64,000 bases of DNA from an uncultured Methanosarcinales archaeon (GCA_964397315.1 CAYNHV010000003.1:19336-83335); one strand, 5' to 3'; counted from the stretch's first letter, positions 1 to 6,000 are shown. Numbers are program-made.

Positions 1-3000
1 AGAGGCAACCCACTTTCTTGGATACTCCCCTCGCTCTATACATCTGCAGACAACCTCTGCTTATGAACAGCCACTAAAGCACATTACTCTTAATGAAGGG
101 CCGGGCAGGTCTCTTTGTAGCCACATCTTCACAACCATCATGATAGGAGAACATCTTGGAGCTGAGGTGGCAGACAGGATAGAATATGCAGGAGAGGCAG
201 GGAGAATAGAATGTCCTGAAGGATTAGTTTCTCCACACGACAAAACAGAGCGTCAAAGACTTGACAGCATTCTTACAAAACAAAGTTTATCTGATGAATT
301 CTACAGCAGTCCTGTAAACTATAACAAAGACCGCGACCTCTTAAGCAGGGCGCTGGAAATGCGCGGCGAAGAATTCATGAAAGTAGCAGGGGAGCTGCTT
401 GGTATTGGCAGATGATCAGAGGCTGGAAACCAGCTTAAGCATTCTGTCTGAGTAAGTCGCTTCCTGCCTTGCAAGATCCTTGTCTTTCTTGATGTCCTCC
501 TGCAGCTGCTTTGCTTTTTCTGTGGATTCCTTTATTGCCTCATTGACTTTTCCAAGGTTTTTTATGTACTTGTTTATATTAACTCCAGCCATGTGTATAG
601 TTTGGTTAAGGCTGCGGTAATCCTTGGTTTCATTAAAATGCTTCAGCGCATTCACCAGGTTATTCTGAGACTGCAGGAGGTCTCCGCGCGCTTCATCAAA
701 AGCATTCAGGATCCTTTGTACGCTGCCCATCAGCTCCCTGATAAGGTCAATGTCTTTTCCTGCCAGCTTTTCAAGGCTCTTGTATGCCTCTTCAATGCCT
801 GAGACATTTCCGGCAGCCTTTCCGCCCTCAATCTTGCCTGAGATGCTCTTAGCCTCTTTTATGAGATCTTCAGAGAGCGCATTGTAGCTTTTGAAAGGGC
901 CTTCAAACATTCTCTTGAGCTGCTGCTGTTCCTTGTACCTCTCTACCTCCTCCTCACCAGCTTTCTGGAGCAGCTCCCTTAGCTCTCCTATGAAGTTTAT
1001 TAGCTCCCTGAAACCATCAAATATCCTTTCCTCCCTGTCCTTGTCAATCCCTGCCTCGCCTTTTTCCTCAATCTCCTTCATGTACGCCCTGAAATCCATG
1101 AACACATCCTCAAACCTTTCATGAATCGGCCTGTAGCCCTGCTTTGTGAGAATCTTCCTTTCCTTGTTCTCAAAGTCAACAAACCTTTTCACAGTGACAT
1201 ATGCCCTGCTCAGCATGTCAAGAAATTCACGCTCTATCTTGCCATGAACTTCCCTAACCTTTTCCTGCAGCTTGCTCTTGTCTTCTTCAGTAACAAAGGC
1301 CATGACACTATCAGAAGCCCTGCAATATATAAATATTTCTTAAGGTGTGGAAGGAAGTTGTTGTTGACAGGATCTGCTGCAGGGCCCTGCCAGGAGCTGA
1401 CAGGAATAAAGAGCCTATTTACCACTTATAAATAGTTAAGAATGAAAAAATTTATAAATGAACGTGACTAAACAGAGTATATGGCTATGATGGAATCCTC
1501 ATTTGATGACCTTATTGACAGAATTGACGAACATAAACTCAGAATTAGTTTAGAGAGAAAAAGGAGATCTATAGAGGAGAATGGCACAAAAGAGCCTACC
1601 GATTATTCTCCTGAAAAGCTTGTTCAGTTTTATATCCAAATAACTGAGGAGATAAATAAATTTGCAGAATATAGTCTGCGATATCCAAACCAGCAGAGAA
1701 CCATGGCTGTCAAAAAAGAGGTAATCACAGAGAACCTTTGTGATATACTGGATTTCCAGACTGCATGGAATGTCCTAAAAACAAAAGACTCGCATCTTTC
1801 AATTGAGCAGTTCAAAAGCATGGACCCTTCTAAAAGACAAGAGGAATTTTTGCAGTCCCTTGAGGAGGGTGTTAAAGGTTTTAGTGATGTCTACAGGAAA
1901 AGATCTTACGCTGTAGAACTCGGAATAAAAGAGGGAATTCTTCCTGAACATTACGAGTGAATCAATCTTTATTCTCAATGAGTCTAAGAAGCTTGTCTTG
2001 GGAGTTAATTAAAAGTCTCTCCTGGGTTTTCAGGCTTCTGAATCTTTCAGCACTATAATTTGGGGAATCTACTTCAGTTCTTAGATTATTCTGAATCTTG
2101 TCCAAAGCTTTCCTTACATCATTGAGACCCGTCTCAACTTTTTCTTTCAAAGTAGGGGCTGAAGCTATCTTGGCGTGATTTGTTATATCCTTTTCTCTTA
2201 GTTCCTTGAAGAGGTCCTCCATCTCTCTTATTACCTTCTCTGGTTTTACAAATAACACTTACCCACCTCCTAAATATATTATGCCCCAACAAATATATAA
2301 ATCTTTCTTCTATGAGATCATGTCCTGGCCGTACCTCATCGCAAGATATATTATCGCAAGCACAATAACCACCACTATCAGAAGCTTCAGCCTGCTCCCC
2401 TTTTTCCTGCCTGCGCCGCTTCCGCCTTTCTTCGCGGCTTCCTCCCTTTTCCTTATCAGCTCCTCTTTCTGTTCCTTTTTCTGCTGCTGATGCTCTTCTT
2501 TTTTCTTTTTCTTCTCCTCTGCTTTCTTCTTCACGCCCGTTTCTCTGCCTTCCCTTAATGCTGCATAACCAAGAGGGCTTATGTCCTTCTTTGACACCCA
2601 CCCCCTCCTGGCCTCTTTTATCCTGCCGAGCCTTTCTTCCCTTTTAAGCCGTATCCTGTCGGTCATGTGTCCCGCCAATATATTGTTCTATAAAAAGTTT
2701 TACTTTCAGCCTGTAAGTAGGCATTCCCGTCACTTTGTCTCAATCTTAACAATACTGTCTATCTCCCTCTTGGATATTGAGCAGCCGTTGAGCTTGAGCC
2801 CCCACAGGACACTGTCAATAAGCTCCTTTCTCGGCTTTGGTATGTTGGGAAGGTATTCCTCAAGCAGGCCCTTCTCATATGCTATGGTGACAAGCTCTGC
2901 TGACCTCAGCATGTGAATCCCATCTGTTTTTTTCCTGAACTCCCTGAGGCTCTTCCTGTTTGCCTCCACTTTTGTGTGGAGCTTCTTCTCCATTATCTTT

Positions 3001-6000
3001 CTCTGCTTTTCAGGGTTTTCCACCAGCAGCCTTGTTGTTCTCTCGTCAACGACCAGGGCGGATGATTTCCTGATTATAGCAAGGGCAAGGGCCTCTATCT
3101 CTGCCTGGTGGACCATCTTCAGCCACCTGCCTTTTGCCTTGAAGCTTTTGTTGGCCAGGTCCATGAGCTCGTCAGCCAGCTTTTTTGTCCTCTGCATCCT
3201 CACCACCATGAGAGCGCCTTTGTTCACTGCTGAAAGGACCTGCATTGCCTCAAACTTGAACCTCTTTGATTTCAGCGGCCTGTCTATTATCTCTTTCTTC
3301 ACGCCCTCTGGAATGAGGAAATCCCCCCTGAACTTTTTCTTCAGGGGCTCCAGCATCCACAGGAGACTGTTTGTTGCAAGGCTTATCACAGGCCCTGAGT
3401 CAAACACTATTGATTTTTTCATTTCCAACAAGCCTCAATACCATCTCAATTGTCAAATCCTGAACAGGCTTCTAGCGAACTCAATCCTTTTCCTGATGTC
3501 CACCGGTGTCTCTTCCGCAATCCTTGTCTTGCCCAGGTAGCTCATCAGCCCCCATTGGGAGATGCCAAGCAGGTCTGCTGCTTTTGCGGCAGACAGGCCG
3601 TGCTCGTAAAGCTTTGAGCCTTTCTTTATCTCTGCCTGCTCCACCACCTCTTCTATGAACCTTTTGAGCCTCTTGTCAACCCTTGATATCATGCTGAGGA
3701 TGCCCTTAATCTCTTTTCTGTATTCATTAACCCTGTCCTTCTTCAGGAGGGAGATGGCATTCTCAAGGGACTTGGAGAACCTTTCCCCAAGCTGTTTCCT
3801 GTCCCCTGACCTCTCCATTATCTTTGATATTGCATAGATTATCACTGCAGCAGAAACAGAGTCCTTATCCTGAAATATAGAGGCGTTATGTATTGTGTGA
3901 TTGCTCAGCTCTTTTATCTCGCTGTACTCGCAGTCTTTTATGAGGATCACAACCTCCCTCAGGACTGTCAGCAGGTCTTTCTTTACACTCTCTTCCATAA
4001 CGTGAGAGGGTGAGTGTTCATTTAAATAGTTTTTTGAACTTCCGTACCGCAGCTCCTGTCTGAACTCCAACTTATACTTTAACACAGCAATCTTTAAATA
4101 TACCGATTGACTAATAACCCTTATGGGGAAGCTTTTTGACGCTCTTAAGCTTGCAAAGTCTCTTTCTGCAGATGATAAAGCGAGCTTTGACATGATATCA
4201 TCATTTCTCGCGCCTGAAGAGAGCAGGAAAGTGAGATGGCTTGTGAAGCAGGGGAAAGTATCCTTCAGGCCCTACACAATAAGCATTGCTGAGAGCAGTT
4301 ACTCCCTCCTCCACTCAGAGGATAAAGAGACAAAGGATTTTGGTGAGAGGATCAACCGCAAGCTAAGGAAGCAGATAAACAGGAAGGTGTTCAGTGACTT
4401 CTCGGATAATGCTCCTGAGAAGATACTCTCAATGATAGCTCCTCACATAGTGGGGTTTGAGCACGTAAAGAAAGCTGTTCTTCTGCAGCTTTTTGCCCTG
4501 GACAACATCCACATACTCCTTCTGGGCGATCCCGGAACCGGAAAGACAGAGATATTGAGGGCTGCCTCTGACCTTTACCCTATCTCGTCTTTCGGGCTTG
4601 GCTCAGGAACATCCTCAGCAGGCCTTTCTGTGACTGTAAAAGGAAAAGAGATCTCACCCGGCCTTCTTCCAATGGCTGACGGCGGGCTTGCGTGCATAGA
4701 CGAGCTGAACCTCATGAAGAAGGAGGACATGGCCTCGCTTTACAATGCCATGGAGAAAGGCTTTATAACATATGACAAGGGAGGGGAGCATTACAAGTTT
4801 GACGCAAGGGTTTCTGTGCTTGCCACAGCCAATCCAAAGAAAGACAAGTTCAAGGGAAGGAAGGTGGAGGAGCTTAAGAAGCAGGCCCCTTTTGATCCAG
4901 CTCTCCTGTCCAGATTCCACCTGGTGTTCCTTGTGAGAAAGCCTGATACAGACGAGTTCAGGGGCATAGCCAGGAGCATAATAAGGGATGAGAAGAAAGA
5001 GCTGGACAAGGAGGACATAAACTTCCTCAGGGAGTACATACGCCATGCAGAGGGTCTTAACATTGTCATTCCCTCATCAATGGAGCACCAGATTGTTGAT
5101 TTTGTTGCAGAGCTGAAGAAGAACGAGGACAAGTATCTCATAGAGGTCTCCCCGCGCATTGTGACAGGGTTTGTGAGGATGGCAAAGGCTGCAGCCAGGG
5201 CAGAGCTGAGAACCATTGTTGAGCAGAAGGATGTGAATCTGGTGAAGGAGGTTGTCAGGCAGAGCCTTGAGATGTGATTCTGAGCTGAATACGGCTCTTA
5301 ATGGCTGGAGAGTTAAATCAGGAAACCCTGACAGGGCTGTATCCAGCATCGCCTACCGAAAATTATATAAACGAAGCAAATATTTTCATACTTTGATATT
5401 TAAAAGCGGTGGTTGAATGCCTAAAAAGAAATCAAAGAGAAAAAAGACCGGCAAAAAGGGCAGCAGCAAGAAGGAAAACAAGGAACCAAAGGAAGAAGAG
5501 ATAATGCCCCAGCAGCAGAAAAAAACCGGGCTCAATCTTCTTAAGAGATTCATAGACAAGGTAATCAGGGGAATATTCAGGAAGAAAAAGCACGTTAAGC
5601 TGGGACTTTACGGCCCCCCAAATGGAGGGAAGACCACCCTGGCCAACAGGGTGTGCAAGGACTGGCTTGGTGAGGAAATGGGGGATGTCTCTGCCATATC
5701 CCACGAGACTAGGGAGATAAAGGTAAAGGAGCAGGTGAACATCAAGTCAGGCAAGAAAGAGCTTTCTTTCAATCTTGTTGACACCCCTGGAATTGCGACA
5801 AAGATAGATTATGAGGACTTTGTGAAGAAAGGCCTGAAAAAGGGGCAGGCAAAAAAGAGGGCAAAGGAAGCCACTAAGGGGGTCATTGACGCTATCAAGT
5901 GGCTTGACAACATGGATGTGGTGGTTGTGGTGCTTGATGCTACAGTGGATCCCTACAACCAGGTTAACATAACCATAATAGGCAACATGGTGGCCAGGAA

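Follow-up and report, generated by a model that had tools for sequence, protein, structure and literature searches.

A short MCM-clade AAA+ ATPase belongs to a conserved protein family found in DPANN archaea

A 64,000-nucleotide stretch of DNA from an uncultured Methanosarcinales archaeon (GCA_964397315.1 CAYNHV010000003.1:19336-83335), hereafter the window, encodes a short MCM protein that we call sMCM. The protein is an MCM-clade AAA+ ATPase and, as sequence comparisons indicate, the short MCM is an intact, conserved family and not a truncation. The family is apparently undescribed: a literature search found no published account of a short MCM family, and public annotation labels its members simply “ATP-binding protein” or, which is misleading, “replicative DNA helicase Mcm.” In the reading that we favor, and to which we give an even chance, sMCM is a chromosomal accessory MCM paralogue that works alongside the canonical MCM in replication or repair, and its family is specific to Woesearchaeales-like DPANN archaea and inherited vertically on the chromosome. 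The gene and its parts are listed here by window coordinates, with the evidence for each; SsoMCM is the canonical MCM of Saccharolobus solfataricus (PDB 3F9V/6MII).

4123-5277, + strand: sMCM, short MCM paralogue, 384 aa (Pfam, NCBIfam, SsoMCM alignment, AlphaFold2 model, Foldseek)
4123-4314, + strand: residues 1-64, predicted winged helix (AlphaFold2 model)
4324-4404, + strand: residues 68-94, predicted long helix (AlphaFold2 model)
4408-4983, + strand: residues 96-287, MCM AAA+ core (Pfam)
5020-5268, + strand: residues 300-382, MCM lid (Pfam)

Residues 96-287 match the Pfam MCM P-loop domain (PF00493) with E=6.2e-43 and 146.9 bits, against a gathering cut-off of 23.3, and residues 300-382 match MCM_lid (PF17855) with E=5.7e-10 and 40 bits (cut-off 27.4). 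The NCBIfam MCM model (NF040949) is matched at 9.2e-49 over positions 281-590 of its 682 only, and the score of 166 bits compares with a whole-protein cut-off of 940. In a PDB search the protein aligns with SsoMCM residues 286-592 (E=6e-35), and its Walker A, Walker B, sensor 1, SRF arginine finger and sensor-2 arginine are in register with those of SsoMCM. Residues K141, D193, E194, N237, R264 and R345, as well as K219 of the presensor 1 (PS1) hairpin, are invariant among 56 aligned homologues. An initial annotation of this DNA had described a 384-aa open reading frame (ORF) with MCM AAA+ signatures, and Pfam, NCBIfam and the register of the quoted motifs with SsoMCM all bear this out.

The same annotation was also right about what is missing. 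The Pfam scan found no domain before residue 96, MCM_N, OB fold and Zn finger included, and hhalign gave the N-terminal domain of sMCM a probability below 1% of matching either the N-terminal domain or the C-terminal winged helix of canonical MCM. An in-frame stop lies five codons 5′ of the ATG, so no N-terminal extension of the frame is possible. An AlphaFold2 model built from the 56-member alignment (predicted local distance difference test score, pLDDT, 90.4; predicted template modeling score, pTM, 0.88) places three helices and a beta-hairpin (H-H-H-beta-beta), that is, a winged helix, at the N-terminus, followed by a long helix, the AAA+ core and the lid. The best PDB matches of this model in Foldseek are archaeal and eukaryotic MCMs. 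The protein ends only two residues past the lid and thus has no counterpart of the C-terminal winged-helix domain of canonical MCM. Relative to SsoMCM, 11 residues are deleted at the position of the external hairpin and the helix-2 insert is six residues shorter, still being predicted as a hairpin; K219 of the PS1 hairpin is kept. A derivation of the N-terminal winged helix from the C-terminal winged helix or the N-terminal domain of canonical MCM was considered and rejected on the hhalign values. Likewise rejected was the idea that the N-terminal 95 residues are a remnant, a winged helix and a long helix being predicted there.

The short form is the norm in a large family. The 120 best database homologues of sMCM are all 377-446 aa long, and the named sources among them are nearly all Woesearchaeota, Nanoarchaeota or Nanobdellota; typical orthologues have 380-400 aa and come from Woesearchaeota/Nanoarchaeia. 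With each GTDB species represented by a single genome, at least 191 species carry the gene, and in at least 82 species it sits in the housekeeping chromosome. In an exhaustive HMMER search covering 1.8 billion cluster representatives, about 65 clusters of 350-430-aa proteins scored 160-412 bits, and a gap separates them from the canonical MCMs of 640-720 aa, which reach at most 155 bits. The description of sMCM as “truncated” in the initial annotation consequently had to be given up, as the short form appears to be the conserved full length of this family, with an N-terminal winged helix of its own.

Catalytic residues are intact in 151 of the 177 family members sampled and lost in 26. Sorted by score, degenerate sequences account for all 15 members below 200 bits and for 9 of 14 between 200 and 300 bits, and 146 of the 148 above 300 bits are intact. 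Members that have lost the catalytic residues show 29-37% identity. Two of these degenerate relatives (P0183 and P0210, 34% identical to each other) each have a Gins51 gene directly downstream, and a third (P0164) lies in the gene cluster S15-RecJ/Cdc45-S3Ae-sMCM. The following loci hold divergent relatives (coordinates are those of the respective locus).

L091, 6220-8076: divergent sMCM relative directly upstream of Gins51
L093, 8001-10084: divergent sMCM relative directly upstream of Gins51
L094, 4476-6559: divergent sMCM relative directly upstream of Gins51
L095, 1011-4205: divergent sMCM relative downstream of S15-RecJ/Cdc45-S3Ae

The relatives at these loci (29-35% identity) have lost Walker A/B, sensor and arginine-finger residues and may be regarded as putative pseudo-ATPase MCM paralogues adjoining the partners of the Cdc45-MCM-GINS (CMG) helicase. 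The S15-RecJ/Cdc45-S3Ae cluster is the conserved archaeal neighborhood of Cdc45/GAN, the GINS-associated nuclease (PMC3307487). The position of degenerate relatives beside Gins51 or RecJ/Cdc45 links the family, by genomic context, to the partners of the CMG helicase.

Canonical MCMs are well represented in the same archaea. Full-length proteins of about 670 aa (MCM_N, MCM_OB, AAA+ and lid) that are labelled Woesearchaeota or Nanoarchaeota are abundant, one of them from the complete genome GW2011_AR15. They are much more conserved (65-100% identity) than sMCM (about 50%), and their genes stand in the context TBP-MCM-(OB protein)...eIF2-beta...PolD DP2, unlike those of sMCM. None of the approximately 168 sMCM loci fetched has a canonical MCM within 10 kb. 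The distance from sMCM to the Woesearchaeota MCMs (median 114 bits) is the same as to other archaeal MCMs (112 bits), which suggests an old or fast-evolving paralogue.

Compared with its relatives of known type, sMCM shares with canonical archaeal MCM the full AAA+ motif set, the PS1-hairpin lysine and the lid (Foldseek E=1.6e-24, in addition to the sequence match given above). Unlike canonical MCM, it has neither the MCM_N/OB/Zn region nor the C-terminal winged helix, and carries an unrelated N-terminal winged helix and helix instead; the external-hairpin deletion, the shorter helix-2 insert and the genomic context set it further apart. The eukaryotic MCM8-MCM9 pair offers a possible functional analogy, as a second MCM motor that coexists with the replicative MCM, and for sMCM a link to repair or replication is suggested by context. 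PDB chains of MCM8/9 are matched by sMCM at 1e-20 to 1e-26. However, MCM8/9 have retained the N-terminal OB domain and assemble into a hetero-hexamer, and the likeness would be one of function and not of orthology. N-terminally divergent MCM-type helicases also occur on mobile elements, as exemplified by BcMCM of a Bacillus cereus prophage (PMC2715239). BcMCM and the MCMs of archaeal viruses and plasmids resemble sMCM in having only the MCM-like AAA+ region, the canonical N-terminus being absent or replaced, but they are found on prophages, viruses and plasmids and have primase-like N-termini, whereas sMCM is chromosomal and has a winged-helix N-terminus.

Upstream of sMCM, on the opposite strand, lie the genes for a helix-turn-helix (HTH) protein and a PIN-like protein.

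3453-3998, - strand: HTH protein, 181 aa, N-terminal helical domain and C-terminal UPF0175-like helix-turn-helix (gene call, 30-homologue alignment)
2730-3422, - strand: PIN-like (COG2405/DUF3368-type) predicted nuclease, 230 aa (precomputed PF11848 match, conserved acidic residues)
3999-4122: divergent intergenic region, 124 bp (read from the sequence)
4021-4028, - strand (HTH gene): TATA-like box TTTAAATA (read from the sequence; inferred promoter function)
4092-4101, + strand (sMCM): TATA-like box TTTAAATATA (read from the sequence; inferred promoter function)

The ORFs at these positions, 3453-4193 (-) for the HTH protein and 2730-3431 (-) for the PIN-like protein, gave way to later starts. 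The HTH protein most likely starts at 3998 (“MEESV...”), as in the 30 homologues, and not at 4193, so that the divergent intergenic region measures 124 bp; the PIN-like protein most likely starts at the ATG at 3422, with GAGG 10 nucleotides upstream. TATA-like boxes lie about 25-30 bp upstream of both the HTH and the sMCM starts, and the one 5′ of sMCM recurs in homologous loci. The N-terminal domain of the HTH protein carries the motif HTIHNASIFQDxDS, conserved in the 30 homologues, and 16 of the 30 match UPF0175 at the C-terminus (best E=6.9e-5), all of them below the Pfam gathering cut-off. A gap of 30 nucleotides (stop at 3453, ATG at 3422) separates the HTH gene from the PIN-like gene on the same strand, which is within the limit of 100 nucleotides set for a UPF0175/COG2405 pair; in relatives the two genes overlap by 4 nucleotides.

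Among homologues of the PIN-like protein, D11, E111/E113, D129-E130 and R176-S177-E179 are conserved, and the protein has an inserted segment and a conserved C-terminal extension of about 60 aa. Precomputed PF11848/DUF3368 matches exist for it, and in PADLOC it weakly matches the single-gene candidate PDC-S70 (E=9.5e-6). The Pfam copy searched gave no DUF3368 match, and a profile search of the PDB gave no match; a single-sequence structure model (pLDDT 41.6) was unusable and was discarded. The PIN assignment, as a prediction from the precomputed PF11848 match, the weak PDC-S70 match and the acidic residues, is not independently confirmed. The initial annotation had described an HTH and PIN gene pair divergent from sMCM: all three ORFs are real and divergently arranged as it said, the start of the HTH gene had to be moved from 4193 to 3998, and the nuclease identity stays provisional.

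COG2405/DUF3368 proteins are VapC-like PIN proteins, and UPF0175 is reported to occur exclusively beside COG2405 (Matelska et al. 2017, PMC5499597). As in UPF0175 (COG2886)/COG2405 pairs, the HTH gene considered here immediately precedes the PIN-like gene, and the two share a strand. Unlike the usual pairs, which are scattered or mobile, both proteins are about twice as large, with conserved extra domains, and the pair keeps a conserved chromosomal position beside sMCM in about 30 species. The double size and the fixed position suggest a domesticated toxin-antitoxin-like module. Two minor features were noted around the pair. In one relative (L011), the divergent promoter region between the HTH gene (ending at about 8080) and sMCM (starting at 8297) is filled by at least five tandem copies of a unit of about 22 nucleotides (CTCTGTGTG[C/T]CAGTAAT...), to which the window has no counterpart. 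Just past the PIN-like gene, at 2134-2678 (-), are two overlapping Lys/Glu/Arg-rich low-complexity ORFs of 155 and 122 aa; the 122-aa ORF, the one of the two that was scanned, has a hydrophobic C-terminus and weak, sub-threshold Pfam matches only.

Downstream, sMCM is followed by the ArvABC (OapABC) genes and a convergent GTPase gene.

5417-6160, + strand: ArvA/OapA-type small GTPase (Pfam MMR_HSR1, E=1.1e-12; position upstream of OapB/OapC)
6163-6567, + strand: ArvB/OapB (DUF2073) (Pfam OapB, E=3.1e-18, 66 bits against a cut-off of 27)
6607-6990, + strand: ArvC/OapC (Zn-ribbon, DUF2072) (Pfam OapC, E=1.2e-24, 87.5 bits against a cut-off of 23)
7030-8238, - strand: YchF/YGR210-like GTPase, convergent with ArvC (Pfam, neighborhood clustering)

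The ArvA gene follows sMCM on the same strand after 139 bp. A TATA-like box is present between the two genes, which may therefore be transcribed separately. In Haloferax volcanii the ArvABC (OapABC) operon drives the formation of RNA-containing vesicles, and it has the same order as in the window: small GTPase, then OapB, then OapC (PMC10927574). OapABC owes its name to its location beside orc1/oriC in haloarchaea and has also been reported in DPANN phyla (PMC10927574). The haloarchaeal operon adjoins orc1/oriC; that of the window and of many Woesearchaeota comes after the gene for the short MCM. The link between ArvABC and sMCM is real and is unexplained. To our knowledge, the connection of these “origin-associated” genes to replication genes has never been explained.

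The conservation of both neighborhoods was assessed by clustering all ORFs in 82 non-redundant GTDB loci, 69 of which have enough flank to judge adjacency, and in an independent metagenome set (55 loci for the OapB/C count, 43 for the HTH count). The families found near sMCM in the 82 loci are as follows.

ArvA-type GTPase: 35/82 loci
OapC: 31/82 loci
HTH protein: 29/82 loci
HerA-like DUF87 ATPase: 28/82 loci
PIN-like protein: 27/82 loci
OapB: 26/82 loci
YchF-like GTPase: 21/82 loci
Metallophos/Mre11-like protein: 15/82 loci
RFC-like AAA+: 9/82 loci
SSB-like OB protein: 8/82 loci
Family-B DNA polymerase (PolB): about 6/82 loci

On the strand of sMCM, OapB/C follows within 2.5 kb in 34 of the 69 GTDB loci and in 15 of the 55 metagenome loci, and the HTH gene is divergently adjacent to sMCM in 18 of 69 and 6 of 43, respectively. 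In a second arrangement the HTH/PIN pair lies on the same strand as sMCM, about 2.5 kb downstream, past OapC and an SSB gene; the occurrence of two arrangements indicates that the linkage survived rearrangement. Beyond the HTH/PIN pair, as seen from sMCM, genes for a HerA-like DUF87 ATPase and for a Metallophos (Mre11-like) protein of about 410 aa recur. Examples of these HerA-like or Mre11-like neighbors are given here.

L041, 7643-9166, - strand
L057, 2334-3560, - strand
L001, 1190-2413, just upstream of the window start

No gene of the size of Rad50 or NurA lies between the HerA-like and Mre11-like genes, and the two may represent a separate repair module. In one sub-lineage (L053, L060, L070, L074 and L083), a family-B DNA polymerase gene is immediately upstream of sMCM, for example at 6648-8948 in L074. 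Another sub-lineage (L043, L044, L047 and L058) has a histidyl-tRNA synthetase (HisRS) gene upstream of sMCM and a gene of the size of FtsZ downstream on the opposite strand, confirmed as FtsZ in L058 only.

If sMCM is an accessory paralogue, its mode of action can be sketched from that of other MCMs. Six copies would form a ring, with ATP hydrolyzed at the subunit interfaces by Walker A/B acting in cis and the arginine finger R264 and sensor-2 R345 acting in trans, and the PS1 hairpin (K219) would pull DNA through the pore. In lieu of the OB/Zn domain, the N-terminal winged helix would serve as the targeting module, for DNA or for a partner protein. Such a protein would assist as a motor at the replication fork or during DNA repair, with eukaryotic MCM8-9 as the closest analogy. 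The HTH/PIN operon would be a fixed, enlarged descendant of a module of the toxin-antitoxin type, and would probably be co-regulated with sMCM or supply a nuclease.

In favor of this proposal are the intact active site and the MCM-like model, the conserved short form, the canonical MCMs of the same lineages, the neighbors from DNA metabolism and the lack of mobile-element signs. Several observations weigh against it. The hexameric ring and the translocation are drawn from homology, and the loss of the external hairpin, the short helix-2 insert and the missing N-terminal domain could compromise helicase activity. The disappearance of the catalytic residues from 26 of 177 members implies that at least part of the function of the family does not need ATP hydrolysis. 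Accession matching of hits found no single genome with both sMCM and a canonical MCM. The lower frequencies in the metagenome set indicate that the links to ArvBC and to the HTH gene are restricted to certain lineages and are not universal, and part of the synteny may be gene order inherited within one order.

It could also be argued that sMCM is the sole replicative MCM of its lineage, a minimal form whose N-terminal domain was lost or is possibly encoded by a split gene elsewhere. The initial annotation had tied this alternative to equally short orthologues and to the lack of another MCM in the genome. The sMCM orthologues are indeed uniformly short, relatives lie beside the genes for Gins51, RecJ/Cdc45, PolB and RFC-like and SSB-like proteins, and isolated AAA+ domains of archaeal MCM keep helicase activity in vitro. 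However, the full-length MCMs of Woesearchaeota and Nanoarchaeota are abundant, much better conserved and found in a replication context of their own, and sMCM evolves much faster. Related subfamilies have lost their catalytic residues, a loss that an essential sole helicase could not bear. The scan of the window, which covered every ORF of 200 aa or more, revealed none with MCM_N/OB. We consider the sole-helicase explanation very improbable: at the level of the lineage, as distinct from this particular genome, sMCM is very probably not the only MCM, and the abundance and separate context of the canonical 670-aa proteins bear out the earlier remark that the main replicative helicase is unlikely to be sMCM. 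The initial annotation also called core-only MCMs typical of integrated elements or plasmids, or of novel regulatory or defense modules, which is not supported here. A reading in which an integrated element, a plasmid or a defense system carries sMCM, with PIN/HTH as addiction or effector module, is largely refuted and scarcely credible. It could draw on the finding that extra archaeal MCM copies are often derived from viruses or plasmids (reviewer discussion, PMC3307487) and on the weak PDC-S70 match of the PIN-like protein. In the 64-kb window, on the other hand, there is no tRNA or Rfam match, no integrase among the ORFs scanned and no flanking/att-like or replication-origin-like repeat near the locus, and the content of guanine plus cytosine is even. 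A tblastn search of 50,697 phage and 72,556 plasmid records returned no family member, only canonical-type MCMs of 27-32% identity, and IMG/VR holds none. For sMCM itself PADLOC gave only generic local P-loop matches (E=4.7e-5 or worse) and no defined defense system, and the chromosomal context is conserved over at least 82 species.

The two conserved neighborhoods suggest more specific partnerships. It is conceivable, if on balance unlikely, that sMCM, the HTH protein and the PIN-like protein form a dedicated helicase-nuclease machine for the processing of DNA ends or RNA, analogous to HerA-NurA. The pair stands beside sMCM in about 30 of the 82 loci and in two arrangements, shares with it a 124-bp promoter region with two TATA-like boxes, consists of proteins about twice the typical UPF0175/COG2405 size with conserved extra domains, and often has HerA-like and Mre11-like genes just beyond it. 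This is offset by its absence within 10 kb of most sMCM loci, by the unconfirmed PIN fold and by the normally autonomous, toxin-antitoxin-like nature of UPF0175/COG2405 pairs (PMC5499597). Somewhat less likely again is that sMCM works with ArvABC, either translocating or regulating nucleic acids in concert with the small-GTPase system of membrane remodeling and vesicle formation, or connecting replication to that system. In 34 of 69 GTDB loci the next genes after sMCM on its strand are ArvA-OapB-OapC, spaced by about 40-220 bp, and the haloarchaeal operon both lies beside orc1/oriC and controls the formation of RNA-containing vesicles (PMC10927574). Yet the link is missing in about half of the loci and in all but 15 of the 55 metagenome loci, ArvABC is widespread in archaea without sMCM, a TATA-like box lies between sMCM and arvA, and such a coupling has no mechanistic precedent. 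An extended version, in which coupling to ArvABC links replication or nucleic-acid export/loading to vesicles or division in ultra-small episymbiotic archaea and the catalytically dead relatives are structural adaptors of CMG, strikes us as decidedly improbable.

Accounts of archaeal replication usually assume one MCM per genome and ascribe extra copies to viruses or plasmids. Here, a large DPANN radiation appears to have inherited vertically a second MCM family of different architecture, built of a winged helix, an AAA+ core and a lid. The division into intact and degenerate branches, the latter beside Gins51 and RecJ/Cdc45, would be an example of the specialization of MCM paralogues in prokaryotes, comparable to MCM8/9 or the mei-MCMs. 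Two genomic links of the family, one with a fixed toxin-antitoxin-like PIN module and one with the ArvABC vesicle genes, can be tested.

The remainder of the window is of housekeeping character. By Pfam it encodes phosphoenolpyruvate (PEP) synthase, malate dehydrogenase, [FeFe] hydrogenase, Elp3 and a P-type ATPase, as well as CPSF, ribosomal proteins, a proteasome-SBDS-exosome operon and an archaellum/pilus cluster. Three large ORFs have no Pfam match: 46887-48482 (-, 531 aa), 48511-49851 (+, 446 aa) and 10068-11306 (-, 412 aa). At 17333-20187 (-), the gene for the large subunit of the [FeFe] hydrogenase (557 aa, with Fe-S domains) adjoins a gene for a NuoF-like flavoprotein, which suggests fermentative H2 metabolism in this DPANN genome. 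The cluster at 37295-46498 contains two full KaiC/RecA-like ATPase genes and a third gene that matches KaiC more weakly. It also has two T2SSF-like genes, one gene for a T2SSE ATPase and several ORFs without a Pfam match, and is probably an archaellum or type IV pilus locus. In two relatives (L002 and L006), a similar KaiC/T2SS cluster lies right beside sMCM.

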